Source: Acaryochloris marina S15
GTDB lineage: Bacteria > Cyanobacteriota > Cyanobacteriia > Thermosynechococcales > Thermosynechococcaceae
Reading direction: 5' to 3'
DNA: 32,000 bases
Assembly (NCBI RefSeq): GCF_018336915.1
Contig: NZ_CP064923.1
Span: 4,260,001 to 4,292,000, forward strand
Shown here: piece after piece, positions 1,108 to 7,820 of the stretch
Numbering within the stretch: position 1 is the stretch's first letter
Layout: the number at the start of each line of letters is the position of its first letter
Made by a program: the position numbers and the translations under genes
The notes under the pieces: generated by a model
Told to the model about the DNA's origin: nothing
Database searches by the model: none
The model's input: only the letters and a program-made list of their open reading frames with translations

Positions 1108-2016
1108 TTACAGATCGCTTTCGGGAATCTCTTCCTTAAAATCAACCACGAGCTGCATCGCTTCGAGGACTAAGCCCCGTAAATCCTGGGTCAGAGGGAC
1201 CTTTGCTTGGTCTCCAAACCAACGATCGAAGATCGACACATAGAACTCTTTACCTTGCAGATACCCTTGCATAAAGCGTACTAAGGAATAGTTGACCTGA
1301 TCCGCAAACTGAGAGTTATTTTCAGGCACCATGCAGGCAATTCCTTCTTTAGAAAAATACCCAATAACATCGAACTTGTTGGGATCTTTAGCCGTTTGCA
1401 GCCAGGCATCCAGTAGAATTCCATCGGCGGCGAACGCATCTACCTGCCCTTGCTGAAGGGCCTTATATCCTTCTGCATGAGTTTTAACGATCACGACTTG
1501 GGCTTGGGGCTGAGCCCGACGGATGGCTGTTTCATTGGTGGTCGCGGCCAGAGCCGCAATTTTCTTGTTTGCCAGGTCAGCCGTTTCCCACGCCGCATTT
1601 TGCTGCTTCACTAGCAAGCGAGTGCCTGTCAGACTGTAACTCACAGAGAAATCAATTTGCTTATCTCGTTCCCAGGTATAACTACTCGCATCACAAACAA
1701 TATCCACTTCACCTTGAACCAGTTTGGGAATCCGGTCTTCAGGGTTAATGGGCATCAGCTGGAGCTGAACCTCTCGTCCTAACTCCTTGGCTAACTGAGT
1801 TTGGATTAGCTTCAGCATATCAATCGAGTAGCCTTGCAATTGCCCTTGATCATCCGCAAATGCAAAGGGCTGTGCTTCTTGGCTAGTACCGGCAGTTAAC
1901 GTACCTGTACGTTGCACTTTTTCTAAGACTGATTCGGCGGCAGCAAACTGTACTCCCAAGACGGTGAATAGAGCTGTTAGGGTAGCAATGGTTGCCGACT
2001 GACCGAGTATTTGCAT
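1108..2016 (-). CDS. Periplasmic amino-acid-binding protein, ABC transporter solute-binding family 3 (orphan; no permease or ATPase adjacent)
   Basis: The ORF track gives 1108..2175. I place the start at the internal ATG at 2016-2014 (MQILGQSATIATLTALFTVLGVQFAAA), which yields a signal peptide. The body (GTLTAGTSQEAQPFAF..GQLQGYSIDMLK...DIVCDASSYTWERDK..DFS.SY...VDAFAADGILL) fits the PBP type 2 / family 3 amino-acid-binding fold. Confidence 0.8.
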   Translation of the reverse strand: MQILGQSATIATLTALFTVLGVQFAAAESVLEKVQRTGTLTAGTSQEAQPFAFADDQGQLQGYSIDMLKLIQTQLAKELGREVQLQLMPINPEDRIPKLVQGEVDIVCDASSYTWERDKQIDFSVSYSLTGTRLLVKQQNAAWETADLANKKIAALAATTNETAIRRAQPQAQVVIVKTHAEGYKALQQGQVDAFAADGILLDAWLQTAKDPNKFDVIGYFSKEGIACMVPENNSQFADQVNYSLVRFMQGYLQGKEFYVSIFDRWFGDQAKVPLTQDLRGLVLEAMQLVVDFKEEIPESDL

Positions 2017-2326
2017 TCTCCTAGAGGGACGTGGAGTGGAATCTTGATGAAGAGAATGGGGGTTTGGGGAGGGGCTGGGGGTGCCTAGTTTCATAACGAT
2101 AAATAATGTCAATCCGTATTTTGAAGCTGAATACAACACTTCAGGAAGTGCAGGTGAATAACAAACTGTATACACAAAAGGAATACCTACCTTCAGGGCA
2201 TTCCAAAGACATAAAGAACCTTGAACGCCAAACTACCAGCAATCCCTGAGCTTGAGAAGTCGAATGTCATGTTCTGTTACGAGGATGACAAGCATTGTTG
2301 AGCTAGCCCTTGCCTAGACAGAAAAC

Positions 2327-2352
2327 AGCGCACTTATTTATATAAGTGCGCT
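2327..2352 (-). terminator. Strong hairpin, possible intrinsic terminator on the minus strand
   Basis: AGCGCACTTAT-ttat-ATAAGTGCGCT is a perfect 11-bp stem. Read on the minus strand it is followed by GTTTTCTGTCT. It sits between the mnt/pentapeptide transcription unit and the promoter region of the binding-protein gene. Confidence 0.35.
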
Positions 2353-2813
2353 TCACGTAAGAGATGTGTTTTGGTTGGTGCAAGTAATTTCATTATAAAT
2401 AGATTTATCTATATCTCCAATAAAGTAATGATTGATTTTTATCTATATATCTACTAAAGTCCAGACACAGTTCTCAAGACATACTATATTGCCTCTCTAA
2501 AGAGATCGAATGTATCCAAGCCCTGATGACTTTGATGCTTTAGCCAGGATTTTATCAACACTCCATGTTTGGCCCAGGGTGAGAGTCGGTGTCAAACAAC
2601 CTCAGGTCGGGGTAAGGTCTTTTTTGTAGTTGTTTTGCAAACTGTCTAGCCCCTAACTTATGCCAGGCTACAAGATCTCACTGTTCATCTAGGAGAATTA
2701 GTGTAGTTGAGTTGAGTGCGATCGCAACTGCAATACCATCCGCCAGATGAGCACCATCCATCGAGGCATCCAGCCTAAAACCTTACTATTAAAAGTTTAT
2801 AGGCGTTGGCGGC

Positions 2814-3236
2814 CTAAGTAACTAAATGCATCTTCGCTGTTTCGGGATGAAAGCCGGTGGGAAAATGGGTATTGCGATCATAATCGGCGGCGGCTAATCG
2901 GGCATCGCCTAAATCAGCTTCTCTCAGATCCGTCCCCATCAGATTAGCCCCCCGCAGATCAGCTCCTTTAAGATTGGCACTTTGCAAAAAGGCTCCTCCC
3001 AGATCAGCGCCTCTAAGAGTGGAGCCTTGCAAATTGGCATCGCCCAGATCCACAGACTCTAAGTCAGCGCCCGCTAGATAAGCATCTTGAAGGTTGACCT
3101 CACTCAAATCCACTTCACTCAGGGAAATACCTCTTAAGTTAGCCCCTGCGAAATTCCGTTTCCCAGACAAATATTGGGCTAAAAAATCATCTCGGCCTAT
3201 CACTACTTCCATAGTTAAACCTTTATCTATGAGCAC
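2814..3236 (-). CDS. Pentapeptide-repeat protein with no signal peptide
   Basis: Contiguous A(D/N)LxG pentapeptides (ANLRGISLSEVDLSEVNLQDAYLAGADLESVDLGDANLQGSTLRGADLGGAFLQSANLKGADLRGANLMGTDLREADLGDARL). The longest ORF begins with GTG at 3236; an ATG at 3212 (MEVVIGRDD) is an equally plausible start. Same strand as mntB and 76 bp downstream of it. Confidence 0.85.
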   Translation of the reverse strand: MLIDKGLTMEVVIGRDDFLAQYLSGKRNFAGANLRGISLSEVDLSEVNLQDAYLAGADLESVDLGDANLQGSTLRGADLGGAFLQSANLKGADLRGANLMGTDLREADLGDARLAAADYDRNTHFPTGFHPETAKMHLVT

Positions 3237-3312
3237 TATCTTTGCAGACAGGGCAATGAGCAGGGTGAGATTTCACTGACCGATTTCACCCTAGAAATTT
3301 AAGTGTACCGAA

Positions 3313-4215
3313 TCAATCCCGAGTCGGCGAGGGCAATGTAACGTTGGAAGTCTGATATTTTCGCTGCAATCGCTGGGCGATAATGCCATATTTAGGAGAG
3401 AAAAACATCGTCACAATAAATACCAGGGTTAAAAGAGTGACAATACTACCCCCCGTGGAAATATCCAAGTGATAACTAAGATAAGTGCCCATTACACAAG
3501 AGAACACACTACTGATCACTGAAATGATCAGCATATGGTCAAAGCGATCGCTCAATAAATAGGCAATTGAACCCGGCGTCACCAACATTGAAATCACTAA
3601 GATAATACCTGCGGTTTGCAGTGCCGTGACAATGGTCAGAGCTAGCACACACAGCAGGGTATAGTACATAGCTTGGGTATTCAGACCAATGGCTTTTGCA
3701 TGGTTTGGATCGAAGCAGAATAGCATCAGATCTTTGCGCCGTAGCAGAATGACAACGAGGGTAATCGTCCCTGCAATCAAGGTTTGGATAATATCCTGTT
3801 GAGAAATTCCGAGGACATTACCAAAAAGGATATGGAATAGATCAATATTGCTGGGGATTTTGGTGATTAACACTAAACCAAAGGCAAAAAACCCGGTGAA
3901 GATCACCCCAATCACGGCATCTTCTTTCAGGCGAGTGTTGGACTTCACATAGCCGATGGCAACTGTAGCCCCAAACCCAAAGACAAACGCACCAATGGAA
4001 AAGGGGATATTCAGGGCATAGGCCACCACTACACCGGGTACCACTGCATGGGAAATGGCGTCTCCCATCAGGGACCAACCCTTAAGGGTGATGTAGCAGG
4101 AGAGTACGGCACACACTAAGCCCACAAAGGCACTCACCCAGATTGCTTGGACTAAAAATGCATACTGTAAGGGTTCGACAATCCAATTCCACAGCGGTAT
4201 GGATGCCATGGTCAT
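3313..4215 (-). CDS. mntB: Manganese ABC transporter permease (MntB / ABC-3 family)
   Basis: 300-aa polytopic membrane protein of the ABC-3 (ZnuB/MntB) type (GDAISHAVVPGVV...GVIFTGFFAFGLVL...). Its ATG overlaps the upstream ATPase stop as ATGA. The C-A-B gene order matches Synechocystis mntCAB. Confidence 0.8.
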   Translation of the reverse strand: MTMASIPLWNWIVEPLQYAFLVQAIWVSAFVGLVCAVLSCYITLKGWSLMGDAISHAVVPGVVVAYALNIPFSIGAFVFGFGATVAIGYVKSNTRLKEDAVIGVIFTGFFAFGLVLITKIPSNIDLFHILFGNVLGISQQDIIQTLIAGTITLVVILLRRKDLMLFCFDPNHAKAIGLNTQAMYYTLLCVLALTIVTALQTAGIILVISMLVTPGSIAYLLSDRFDHMLIISVISSVFSCVMGTYLSYHLDISTGGSIVTLLTLVFIVTMFFSPKYGIIAQRLQRKYQTSNVTLPSPTRD

Positions 4216-4997
4216 GCTTCTACCTCTGACTGCAGAGGGATTTGCTTTAGGCTCCGGATGGGCAAACCGCCAAAGGTCAGTGCAAGATTTTCTTCAGTAA
4301 AGGTTTCGGCGGTCGTCCCCGAGGCAAGAATCGTTTGATTGAGCAGGATGGTGCGATCGCAAAAAGTCGACACAGATGCCAGATCGTGGGTAGAAATCAA
4401 AATAGTGTGGTGTTCTTGACGCAATTGCAGCATCAGGTCAATGATGCTTTTTTCTGTCTTGACATCTACTCCTGTAAATGGCTCATCCAATAACATGACC
4501 TTGCTTTCTTGGGCCAAGGCTCGGGCTAGAAATGCGCGCTTTTTCTGGCCCCCTGATAGTTCTCCAATTTGACGATGGCGAAAATCAACCATACCGACTC
4601 GCTCAAGACTGGACATCACCAGCCGTCGATCCTTCGCAGAGGGCATCCGCAGCACATTCATATAGCCATAGCGTCCCATCATCACCACGTCGAAAACACT
4701 CACGGGAAAATTCCAGTCCACCTCATCGGCTTGCGGGACATAGGACATCAATTGTCGTTTTTGGGCCTTATGAACGGGCAAGCCCTGCACCCGGATGTGG
4801 CCTTGGGTGGGACGTAAAAACCCCATGATGGATTTGAATAGGGTTGATTTACCGCAGCCGTTGGGTCCTACCAAAGCGGTGATGGTTCCGGGTTCTACGG
4901 TGCAAGTCGCGTTGTAAAGAGCTAACCGGGCATTATTGTAGGTGACGCTCAGGTTATCCACGGTAATGCCGAAGGCTTGAGTTGTAGAATTCATCAT
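4212..4997 (-). CDS. mntA: Manganese ABC transporter ATP-binding protein
   Basis: Walker A GPNGCGKST, signature LSGGQKKR, Walker B MLLDEPFTGVD, H-loop STHDL. Sits between the SBP and permease genes. Confidence 0.85.
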   Translation of the reverse strand: MMNSTTQAFGITVDNLSVTYNNARLALYNATCTVEPGTITALVGPNGCGKSTLFKSIMGFLRPTQGHIRVQGLPVHKAQKRQLMSYVPQADEVDWNFPVSVFDVVMMGRYGYMNVLRMPSAKDRRLVMSSLERVGMVDFRHRQIGELSGGQKKRAFLARALAQESKVMLLDEPFTGVDVKTEKSIIDLMLQLRQEHHTILISTHDLASVSTFCDRTILLNQTILASGTTAETFTEENLALTFGGLPIRSLKQIPLQSEVEA

Positions 4998-5034
4998 CTT
5001 GACTAGTAATCGTTACCAAATATCTTGCGAACGT

Positions 5035-6015
5035 TCAGTTTTTGCGGCCAGCGAGTAAGCCGTTGGTTATCGTGCGAGCGTCATATTCCAGCAAATCTAA
5101 AAACGTGGGTACTGGCCCCTCTGCCGTTGAGAGGGAATCGACATAGAGATTGCCGCCAAACCGCACGCCTGTAGTTTTGGCCACCTGCTTTTGTCCTTCA
5201 TCACTCACGGTACTTTCACAGAAAATCGTCGGTACATCATTCGACTTGACCTTTTTAATCACGCGTTGGACTTGCTTAGGAGTAAACTGCTGTTCTGCAT
5301 TGATCGGCCACATATAAATTTCTTTCATGTCATAGTCCCGAGCCAGGTAAGAAAATGCGCCTTCACAGCTCACTAAATACCGTTGGCTGGCAGGAACTTT
5401 CTCTAGGTCTGCTTGTAGCTCATCATCAATAGCTTTGAGTTTCTTGCTGTAGGCTTCAGCATTGGCGTTGTAGGTTTCTTCATTTTCTGGATCGAGTTTC
5501 ACAAATGCTTTGCGAATGTTTTCGACATACACCAGGGCATTGCGGGGTGACATCCAAGCGTGGGGATTGGGCTTATCGGAATAGGGGCCTTCCACAATCG
5601 GCATCGGTTCAATTCCCTCTGTCAGTAGCACCGAAGGGACATCTTTGACACTGCCCAGGAACTTCTCAAACCAGCGTTCCAGGTTCATGCCGTTGTAGAG
5701 AATCAAGTCGGCATCCTGGGCTTTAACCAAATCGCTAGGAGTGGGTTCATAGCCGTGAATCTCTGCACCAATACGAGTGACGGATTCTACGTTCAGCTTG
5801 TCACCGGCAACGTTGCGGGCCATATCAGCCAGAATCGTGAATGTTGTCAGTACCGTCTTTTTCCCATTCGCTTTTGCGGGTCGATTTTCATTTTCTGCAG
5901 TCTGCTCTTCAGGGTTCGTCGAAGGCCCGTCAGGGGCTGTGCAGCCGGTAAAAGCTAACCCAAATGCCAGGAGAGTGGCGAACACAACACTTCTTCGGAG
6001 AGGGATATTGGTCAT
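5035..6015 (-). CDS. mntC: Manganese-binding lipoprotein, cluster A-I (TroA/PsaA/MntC) solute-binding protein
   Basis: Lipobox LAFTGC in the signal peptide. Metal-SBP blocks are present (VLTTFTILADMARNVAGD, EIHGYEPTPSD, NPHAWMSP, YLVSCEGAFSYLARDY, IFCESTVSD). First gene of the three-gene operon. Confidence 0.85.
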   Translation of the reverse strand: MTNIPLRRSVVFATLLAFGLAFTGCTAPDGPSTNPEEQTAENENRPAKANGKKTVLTTFTILADMARNVAGDKLNVESVTRIGAEIHGYEPTPSDLVKAQDADLILYNGMNLERWFEKFLGSVKDVPSVLLTEGIEPMPIVEGPYSDKPNPHAWMSPRNALVYVENIRKAFVKLDPENEETYNANAEAYSKKLKAIDDELQADLEKVPASQRYLVSCEGAFSYLARDYDMKEIYMWPINAEQQFTPKQVQRVIKKVKSNDVPTIFCESTVSDEGQKQVAKTTGVRFGGNLYVDSLSTAEGPVPTFLDLLEYDARTITNGLLAGRKN

Positions 6016-6164
6016 GCAGTGAAAACTGTTTCATAATCATTTCATATTCTACTTCTATCCCAGCTAGAAGACAATTCTAGATTGCTTCACATATCTATAT
6101 ATTCTGGAGGTAGCATCTAGAATTAGCGCGCTATTTTAGCATCCAACAACAATGGAATACATTT

Positions 6165-6267
6165 GGCTCTAACAAGGTTCAGTCGTTAGATAAATCGGTG
6201 CAAATCCGTTGCTGCGCTGTCCCACAGATGTGATGAGGTCTGAGCATCAGAGTCAGAATGCCCGCCC
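6165..6267 (+). promoter_or_regulatory. Cobalamin (B12) riboswitch-like element, compact form
   Basis: The + strand reads ...TAGATAAATCGGTGCAAATCCGTTGCTGCGCTGTCCCACAGATGTGATGAGGTCTGAGCATCAGAGTCAGAATGCCCGCC. The GGTGCAAATCC / GCTG..CCC.C.A.TGTGA core and the 3' AGTCAGAATGCCCGCC block resemble the conserved cobalamin-riboswitch core and B12 box. Boundaries are approximate, and it was recognised by eye only. Confidence 0.6.
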
Positions 6268-6271
6268 AGCA

Positions 6272-6529
6272 ATGATTCACTTTCACAACATCTACGAGAT
6301 CTGGGGAATCAGTGTAAAAGTTGGGTTTTCCGTAGTTGGGAAACTCATATTTGTTTTTGGGCTCAGTACCGTTGCCAAGTTTGTCTACATTACAAGAGCT
6401 AGCCTGACGTTAACCCATCCTCCTTCAAGCGAAGAGATCCTTCCCCCTTCAAGCATGGAGGACAAAGAGGTAGACATTGCCATCACGGGAGAAATATTTA
6501 ATCAACCCGTTTATGGGCCATTTCGATGA
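6272..6529 (+). CDS. Hypothetical 85-aa ORF immediately after the riboswitch-like element; may be a small membrane protein or a gene remnant
   Basis: The ATG at 6272 lies 5 nt after the B12-box-like sequence, with no Shine-Dalgarno. MIHFHNIYEIWGISVKVGFSVVGKLIFVFGLSTVAKFVYITRA...KEVDIAITGEIFNQPVYGPFR. The track's 6209 TTG start would lie inside the RNA element. Coding status is uncertain. Confidence 0.3.
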   Translation: MIHFHNIYEIWGISVKVGFSVVGKLIFVFGLSTVAKFVYITRASLTLTHPPSSEEILPPSSMEDKEVDIAITGEIFNQPVYGPFR

Positions 6530-6902
6530 AAGGGGACTAGGCATCATTCTTCGCAAGTCTTAAAACACTTGGCAGTCACACTACTTTTACCTACTACTGA
6601 TCCCATAAAGCACCAGAAATATGGCTTATTAATTAAAAGCAATATCAATAAGAGGGTTTTGCAGATCTACCCTTTTCAGACTGTTTCAATAAATTCCTCA
6701 CTCACCGAGGCTTTGAAATCCTGTCACCACAATTAACTCATCTACTGCTCTATGCGTAAGAGTTTCGATGACCATAAATAATTTTTTGATTTAAATAAAA
6801 AAAAGAAGTTGTGGCTTCTACATATAGTTGCAATAAGCGGCCTTAATGACTGATGATTGATCTCAATAGCCGTTCTTAAATAAAAGCAGCCCTAGTAGGT
6901 TC

Positions 6903-7820
6903 ATGACTATCGATAATCGCCAAGATGTGCGCAATGTGCTCGTCACTGTCTTGTTTTTAAATGTCACAGTGATGCTAATTAAGGCTGGCCTGGGATGGTG
7001 GACAGGGTCTTTGAGTTTATTCGCAGATGCACTGCATAGCATTACCGATAGTGCGAATAACGTGCTGGGATTAACCATGAATCGATTGGCATCCCCAGAA
7101 CCCGATCGCGAGCATCCCTATGGACACCAAAAATTTGATGCCATTGGGGCGTTGGGTATCGCTGCTTTTTTAGGGATTGCTTGCTTTGAAATTTTAGAAG
7201 GGGCAGTGGGGAATCTCTTCAGCCAACAGTCTGATGTGGCAATGTCGCCTCAAGTCTTAGAACTATTGCTCGTGGTATTGGGCCTCAATATTATTGTGGC
7301 CGTTTACGAGCGTAGCGTTGGCGAGCGGGTGAACAGCAGCATTCTGTTATCGGATGCGCAACATACGATGAGCGATATTTGGGTCACCGGAATGGTGATG
7401 CTGGGCCTTGTCGGTGTGGGATTAGGATATCAATGGGTCGACGTGGTGTTGGCCTTCCCTGTCTGCGTTTTAGTATTTGCTAGCGGCTGGTCTGTATTGC
7501 AGCACAACTTGCCTTGGTTGGTGGATGAGATGGCCATTGCCCCAGAAGCGATTCATGACGCGGTGATTAATGTGCCTGGGGTGCTCAACTGTCACGATAT
7601 AGCTTCTCGTGGGTTGTTGGGACGTCAGACCTTTATCGAGATGCACCTGGTGGTGGACTCAGATAGTGTCGAAGTGGCCCATGACATCACAGAAGAAGTG
7701 GAAGCCATTCTGGAGCAAAAGTATGCTCCTATACGGGCCACTATCCACATTGAACCCCGGTCTTATTCCTCCGAGCAGATTAGTTTTGGTGAAGTGCCGG
7801 CAACGGAGCAAGGCGTCTAA
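6903..7820 (+). CDS. Cation diffusion facilitator (CDF) family divalent-metal transporter
   Basis: 305 aa with six predicted TM segments plus a C-terminal cytoplasmic domain. The TM2 motif is HSITD and the TM5 motif is HTMSD (HxxxD/HxxxD, the Zn/Co/Cd-type site A). The C-terminal segment ...HDI...FIEMHLVVD...AH.I...VE is typical of CDF proteins. Confidence 0.85.
   Translation: MTIDNRQDVRNVLVTVLFLNVTVMLIKAGLGWWTGSLSLFADALHSITDSANNVLGLTMNRLASPEPDREHPYGHQKFDAIGALGIAAFLGIACFEILEGAVGNLFSQQSDVAMSPQVLELLLVVLGLNIIVAVYERSVGERVNSSILLSDAQHTMSDIWVTGMVMLGLVGVGLGYQWVDVVLAFPVCVLVFASGWSVLQHNLPWLVDEMAIAPEAIHDAVINVPGVLNCHDIASRGLLGRQTFIEMHLVVDSDSVEVAHDITEEVEAILEQKYAPIRATIHIEPRSYSSEQISFGEVPATEQGV

Follow-up and report, generated by a model that had tools for sequence, protein, structure and literature searches.

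Organization of the locus

We analyzed a 32,000-nt stretch of Acaryochloris marina S15 DNA (hereafter the window), in which the spacer at 6016-6902 lies between three minus-strand genes for a Mn/Zn-type ABC importer and a plus-strand gene for a CDF transporter. The features at this locus, in window coordinates, are as follows.

3313-4215, minus strand: permease of the Mn/Zn-type ABC importer (Pfam/NCBIfam)
4212-4997, minus strand: ATPase of the Mn/Zn-type ABC importer (Pfam/NCBIfam)
5035-6015, minus strand: substrate-binding protein of the Mn/Zn-type ABC importer, mntC-like (Pfam/NCBIfam)
6147-6283, plus strand, 137 nt: putative relic of a cobalamin-riboswitch aptamer, aligned with positions 5000-5142 of the pREB2 locus (L083)
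6197-6207, plus strand: motif GGTGCAAATCC, present in the sequence
6216-6233, plus strand: motif GCTGTCCCACAGATGTGA, present in the sequence
6251-6266, plus strand: B12 box AGTCAGAATGCCCGCC, the best-kept piece of the relic
6272-6529, plus strand: 85-codon ORF from the ORF list, with ATG at 6272 and TGA at 6527-6529
6296-6307, plus strand: sites corresponding to the Shine-Dalgarno sequence and start codon of the ancestor, each changed by mutation (pREB2 alignment and codon comparison)
6305-6556, plus strand: putative stub of a BtuB-like TonB-dependent receptor gene, codons 1-84 of 688 (tblastn with the pREB2 receptor)
6604-6898, no strand assigned, ~295 nt: conserved intergenic module, separate from the relic (cross-replicon alignment)
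6903-7820, plus strand: intact CDF transporter gene of the Cdf31 zinc-efflux family (Pfam Cation_efflux and ZT_dimer)

The original prediction had drawn attention to cobalamin-riboswitch-like blocks and a B12-box-like motif in this spacer. These are present, and they are not a product of chance, being homologous to a riboswitch on plasmid pREB2 that scores 58.3 bits against RF00174 (see below). The element is short, as had been described, but the proposed extent of about 100 nt (6165-6267) was slightly too small, since homology assigns it 137 nt (6147-6283). An ATG at 6272 that lacks a Shine-Dalgarno sequence and opens an 85-codon ORF ending at 6529 was likewise found in the sequence, as was the subsequent ORF-free stretch of about 370 nt ahead of the CDF transporter gene, here identified as Cdf31 (6903-7820).

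Upstream of the mntC-like gene, we observed a perfect 10-nt inverted repeat (6073-6082 and 6115-6124, AATTCTAGAT and ATCTAGAATT, with 32 nt between the arms) and an additional CTAGAA half-site at ~6066. A metal regulator might use the repeat at 6073-6124 as its operator.

Homology to a riboswitch-receptor unit on plasmid pREB2

A sensitive BLASTN search with the whole spacer against 7.3 Gb of plasmid sequences detected 72.4% identity (E 2e-52) between window positions 6148-6525 and the A. marina plasmid pREB2, in a region where a TonB-dependent receptor is annotated. Relaxing the search parameters extended the match to 6148-6552 (L083 5001-5409; 71.5% identity over 411 nt, E 2e-68), and homology to pREB2 stops at ~6556. 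The relationship to the receptor surfaced only through this DNA-level search of plasmids and not through protein searches. The pREB2 unit and a second, weaker BLASTN match in another cyanobacterium provided intact counterparts for comparison.

pREB2, L083 5000-5142, 143 nt: cobalamin riboswitch (RF00174, 58.3 bits)
pREB2, start at L083 5162, 20 nt after the aptamer: receptor AM1_RS30895 of A. marina MBIC11017, 688 aa
Trichormus variabilis ATCC 29413 plasmid A, L084 3941-4083: cobalamin riboswitch (RF00174, 55.3 bits)

In pREB2, the receptor start is preceded by a Shine-Dalgarno sequence (GAGG-N5-ATG), and the receptor is the first gene of a transport cluster, followed on its 3' side by genes for an Fe-S protein, an ABC substrate-binding protein (a weak BtuF match), a metallophosphoesterase and an iron-type ABC permease. 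Its top NCBIfam match was TonB-B12 (TIGR01779) with 210.7 bits, against an equivalog cut-off of 599.7; as the protein falls below the BtuB equivalog cut-offs, the term BtuB-like should be taken as resemblance and not as proven specificity. The pREB2 aptamer is a short form, in which ~58 consensus positions of the RF00174 peripheral region are replaced by 4 nt, and it folds into the expected architecture (-44.4 kcal/mol, z -1.95). It shares 82% core identity with the T. variabilis aptamer, although the two organisms belong to different cyanobacterial orders. The T. variabilis aptamer, whose core is near-identical to that of pREB2 and whose P2 hairpin shows compensatory changes, is located upstream of a DUF1636 gene, a TonB-dependent receptor and a ferredoxin, with an ISAva6 transposase alongside.

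When the frames of the spacer were compared with receptors, as the original prediction had proposed, tblastn placed residues 3-84 of the pREB2 receptor on window positions 6311-6556 with 61% identity over 82 residues (E 8e-26), the alignment running across an in-frame stop. The other 604 receptor residues and the rest of the pREB2 cluster were absent from the window by tblastn; 12% of the receptor gene is left and 88% is missing. We consider it very likely that the region 6147-6556 represents what is left, without function, of the 5' end of a gene for a BtuB-like TonB-dependent receptor that was once controlled by a cobalamin riboswitch. One of the readings originally offered, a decayed btuB-like gene that had left its riboswitch behind, was thus correct with respect to decay of the gene, but the riboswitch was not spared, having decayed as well.

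Decay of the aptamer

The whole window yielded no match to Rfam 15 at the gathering threshold (31.5 bits for RF00174), and at E<=10 no match to the cobalamin clan was detected in 5900-7000 or in the 201-nt segment 6120-6320. Across these three scales and on both strands, no cobalamin, NiCo/czcD or Mn riboswitch was found, only snoRNA and sRNA noise with E>5. Speed filters in Rfam could mask a very weak match; the 201-nt search was run with the laxest filters of the tool, and the pREB2 and T. variabilis aptamers obtained their 58.3 and 55.3 bits in the same tool. Hence the covariance-model check of the plus-strand element, by which the original prediction was to be judged, came out negative even at E<=10. 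We also considered the element as a minus-strand 5'-UTR element of mntC and rejected this, as the homology is to a plus-strand riboswitch and no minus-strand Rfam match was found.

For comparison of the aptamers, the window sequence was threaded on the Rfam-derived structure of the pREB2 aptamer, with which it is identical at 100 of 143 positions. The core (GGGAA/P4) has suffered a net 6-nt deletion that leaves a single GG-rich module; whether this is the GGGAA box or the GGUG-AAAUCC hairpin depends on the alignment. In addition, CCCGCAACUGU has become CCCACAGAUGU, and the invariant CCCGCA-CUGU segment carries three substitutions. Altogether, 26 of the 103 positions common to the two working aptamers are altered. 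Two thirds of the canonical pairs (20/30) are kept, including all six of the P2 hairpin; the P1 outer helix retains 6 of 12 pairs, compared with 10 of 12 in pREB2, and both the GGG/CCC long-range helix and P4 are damaged. The minimum free energy fold of the relic (-30.6 kcal/mol, z +0.58) lacks the aptamer architecture, and the region folds no better than dinucleotide shuffles (z +1.04 and +0.58). Still well kept are the P2 hairpin, the GCUGUCCC segment and the B12 box, AGTCAGAATGCCCGCC, which matches the box of T. variabilis plasmid A exactly and differs by 1 nt from that of pREB2.

The relic aptamer is 71% identical to its pREB2 counterpart from the same genus, a value that matches the divergence of the coding stub (70.6% identity) and of the neutral-looking intergenic module (70-73%), suggesting that the aptamer evolves like unconstrained DNA. 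With regard to membership in the family, the relic shows descent from RF00174 and a B12 box, whereas the covariance score, the complete core and the helices are wanting. The element is a descendant of RF00174 that no longer qualifies as a member by the features that define the family.

The receptor stub and the 85-codon ORF

The stub comprises the signal peptide, followed by a Pro/Ser/Glu linker and the beginning of the TonB-box/plug region, and its motif DIAITGEIFNQP corresponds to EITVTGEILDQP in the pREB2 receptor. Of the properties of a TonB-dependent receptor, it displays the N-terminal homology, and it lacks the plug, the 22-strand beta-barrel and an intact ORF. Each translation signal of the intact gene is altered: the Shine-Dalgarno sequence GAGG of pREB2 reads GAGA at 6296-6299, and the native ATG start reads GGA at 6305-6307. 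Further downstream, an in-frame CGA (Arg75 in pREB2) has changed to TGA at 6527-6529, and no stop interrupts the frame over the preceding 111 codons (6194-6526). An imperfect 16-nt direct repeat (6415-6430 and 6439-6454, CCATCCTCCTTCAAGC and CCTTCCCCCTTCAAGC) encodes the PPSSEE / LPPSS linker of the stub; it is probably low-complexity sequence of no significance.

By comparison with the pREB2 gene, the 85-codon ORF appears to be a fortuitous frame over the signal-peptide, linker and TonB-box region, opened by a chance ATG just past the aptamer relic. Its tail, KEVDIAITGEIFNQPVYGPFR, had been noted in the original prediction as loosely recalling the start of a TonB-dependent-receptor plug, and this observation proved apt: the tail aligns with residues 54-74 of the pREB2 BtuB-like receptor. 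Only self-matches were obtained for the 85-aa product, both in a word-indexed search of 5.8 billion proteins and in a full phmmer search against 1.84 billion representatives; they came from two Logan assemblies that contain the identical locus and in which a gene caller had called the ORF. Searches of Pfam (E<=10, any frame of 6016-6902), NCBIfam (open pieces in six frames) and PDB sequences gave no match, including none to a Plug or barrel domain. The derivation of the ORF from a receptor signal-peptide region, read from a chance ATG, explains why protein homologs and family or structure matches are missing.

The dN/dS ratio of the stub relative to pREB2 is 0.36, compared with 0.037 for the neighboring CDF gene, and the corresponding dS values are 0.71 and 0.98. 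The similarity of the dS values suggests that the divergence of the stub from the pREB2 gene is about as old as that of the strains. A dN/dS of 0.36, although below 1, would be expected if most of the divergence predates the decay, and should not be taken as proof of neutrality.

The CDF gene, its upstream module and the variable slot

The CDF gene scored 499.3 bits against the NCBIfam equivalog NF052602 (Cdf31), above its cut-off of 460, and its product is 93% identical to orthologs in A. marina MBIC11017 and Acaryochloris sp. IP29b. Comparison by synteny through this gene (one genome per species) provided two Acaryochloris loci that were close enough, neither of which contained the relic. 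The spacer at 6016-6600, whose conservation had been raised as a check in the original prediction, turned out not to be shared: it has no counterpart upstream of the CDF gene in MBIC11017 or IP29b, where only ~6604-6902 aligns.

This aligning part contains the conserved module (6604-6898), which is 70-73% identical to sequences in three other replicons (L001 3723-3996, L002 3709-3996 and, on plasmid pREB1, L085 2985-3285), none of which has the relic. In IP29b, the module is situated between divergent feoAB genes and the CDF gene; on the MBIC11017 chromosome, it adjoins feoA remnants; and on pREB1, it adjoins feoAB and a frameshifted CDF pseudogene. These contexts suggest that the module belongs to the CDF gene and ancestrally also to a divergent feoAB operon, and it probably holds the promoters of both. 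The CDF gene is most likely expressed from this conserved upstream module of its own. As the module occurs in replicons that lack the relic, the relic is best regarded as a remnant of an insertion or rearrangement in a variable slot and not as part of the CDF regulatory region. Strongly conserved blocks were seen within the module, for example ATGACTGATGATTGATCTCAATAGC, which looks similar to a Fur/Zur box. The pREB1 copy of the CDF gene (L085 3290-4135) was recovered as three tblastn pieces of 82-97% identity and has no listed PLSDB feature.

The content of the slot between the gene for a GrrP-like binding protein and the CDF gene varies among the loci compared (window 1108-6556, L001 613-3530 and L002 1855-3700). 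In the window, it holds a pentapeptide-repeat gene, mntCAB and the btuB relic; in IP29b, feoAB; and in MBIC11017, only feoA remnants (70% over 83 aa). The slot seems to be a site where metal-uptake cassettes, which have counterparts on plasmids, are frequently gained and lost.

Further sequence collections yielded no additional relatives. A protein-pattern scan of metagenomes found no relative, and an exact 17-mer scan of metagenomes returned 103 loci, none of which was homologous by BLAST. The literature on Acaryochloris together with cobalamin riboswitches, Cdf31 and riboswitch pseudogenes provided nothing usable.

Alternative explanations

The element could instead be a working compact cobalamin riboswitch that controls read-through into a long leader and the Cdf31-type CDF exporter. 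It is positioned upstream of the CDF gene on the same strand, its B12 box is intact, a terminator-like hairpin with a T run occurs at 6322-6347, and a metal exporter could conceivably be linked to a cobalt-containing ligand. However, an aptamer that has no covariance-model match at E<=10, is short of one core element, the GGGAA box or the GGUG-AAAUCC P4 hairpin, under either possible alignment, carries three substitutions in the invariant CCCGCA-CUGU segment and is no more stable than shuffled sequence would hardly be a functional one. The gene to be regulated offers little encouragement either: it belongs to a zinc-efflux family, Cdf31, and its module at 6604-6898 is conserved in three riboswitch-less replicons. 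Nor did the hairpin at 6322-6347 qualify as an expression platform; it was rejected because it falls within codons for the signal peptide that are conserved in the intact gene, where it can form too (in pREB2), and because such sites are not enriched. Two terminator-like sites were found when 0.7 +/- 0.8 were expected, and promoter-like as well as terminator-like matches in the spacer are no more frequent than chance predicts. We regard this explanation as very improbable, and the original suggestion that a riboswitch gates the CDF exporter or a long leader is not supported, given the broken aptamer and the separate, riboswitch-less module.

We hold it to be just as improbable that the 85-aa ORF has taken on a role as a new small protein, either of the membrane or secreted, which in the original prediction took the form of a new B12-regulated small membrane protein. 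The frame is open (85 codons from the ATG, 111 overall), it encodes a hydrophobic, signal-peptide-like segment, it was called by a gene caller in two Logan assemblies, and its dN/dS of 0.36 is below 1. Yet mutation has destroyed both ancestral translation signals, the Shine-Dalgarno sequence and the start codon, and the substitute ATG at 6272 lacks a Shine-Dalgarno sequence; the product has no homolog except itself and no family or structure match; the end of the ORF is a nonsense mutation of a receptor codon, past which the homology continues; and at the nucleotide level the ORF has diverged as much as the non-coding relic next to it. What this proposal took for a protein would be a signal-peptide fragment. 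The idea that the likeness to a cobalamin riboswitch reflects chance occurrence of short motifs in an ordinary spacer agrees with the lack of an Rfam match and with a fold no better than shuffles, but it deserves practically no credence in the face of 411 nt of collinear homology to a verified riboswitch and receptor locus (E 2e-68 for DNA and 8e-26 for protein). Finally, we leave a slight chance to some residual role of the decayed region, either as a degenerate aptamer or old-promoter transcript that acts as a ligand-independent or weakly B12-responsive leader and modulates read-through into the gene for the Cdf31 zinc exporter, or as an 85-aa fragment that serves as a small envelope protein. 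Decay of a riboswitch-receptor unit remains the explanation that we favor, and the relic most likely does nothing today.

Proposed history and comparison with known systems

The ancestral unit would have resembled the one that is intact on pREB2, with a short cobalamin aptamer abutting the Shine-Dalgarno sequence and start of an outer-membrane receptor gene. In cobalamin riboswitches that precede btuB-type genes, the B12-bound state represses synthesis. Based on this behavior of the family and on the position of the aptamer against the Shine-Dalgarno sequence, we infer that B12 binding shut off receptor synthesis in the ancestral unit. A deletion may then have taken everything past codon ~84, after which the remaining ~410 bp would have drifted at an approximately neutral rate. 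During this drift, some of the ligand-binding core of the aptamer would have disappeared along with several helices, mutations would have changed the Shine-Dalgarno sequence and the start codon, and a nonsense codon would have arisen, leaving a remnant that is presumably inert. The placement of the deletion before the point mutations is likewise an inferred order, no closer intact ortholog having been found. The case is one of ordinary pseudogene decay, of an already known kind, and involves no new regulatory element.

The relic serves as a caution that a riboswitch leader can outlive its gene and be mistaken for a regulatory RNA that is orphan or novel and whose regulon looks odd, as with the metal exporter in this case. 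Such an apparent orphan riboswitch is resolved at once when it is compared with an intact paralog. It also illustrates the variability of the slot to the left of the Cdf31 gene in Acaryochloris, where feoAB, mntCAB and B12 receptor cassettes are swapped and decay, and where the metal- and cofactor-uptake cassettes have counterparts on pREB plasmids. Beyond this caution and the slot variability, the relic has no bearing on riboswitch mechanism or B12 biology.

Among known systems, the closest is the pREB2 cobalamin riboswitch (RF00174, clan CL00101), with which the window copy shares collinearity over the whole aptamer, the B12 box, P2, the short form and a position directly 5' of receptor gene sequence. 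The window copy differs from that of pREB2 in its failure against the covariance model, its 6-nt core deletion, its substitutions at invariant positions and its weaker P1, and it no longer precedes a translatable gene. Compared with BtuB-type receptors (TIGR01779 / NF007926), the stub shows 61% identity to the first 84 residues of a receptor that has a cobalamin riboswitch and TonB-B12 as its best family match, whereas it has no Plug, barrel or start codon and contains an internal stop. The remnant can also be compared with bacterial pseudogene remnants that deletions have left at variable loci, which it resembles in being a truncated 5' fragment with its leader, in its lost translation signals and nonsense mutation, in its near-neutral divergence and in its location in a strain-variable slot. 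Its sole notable feature among them is the riboswitch leader, hence its appearance as an orphan RNA.
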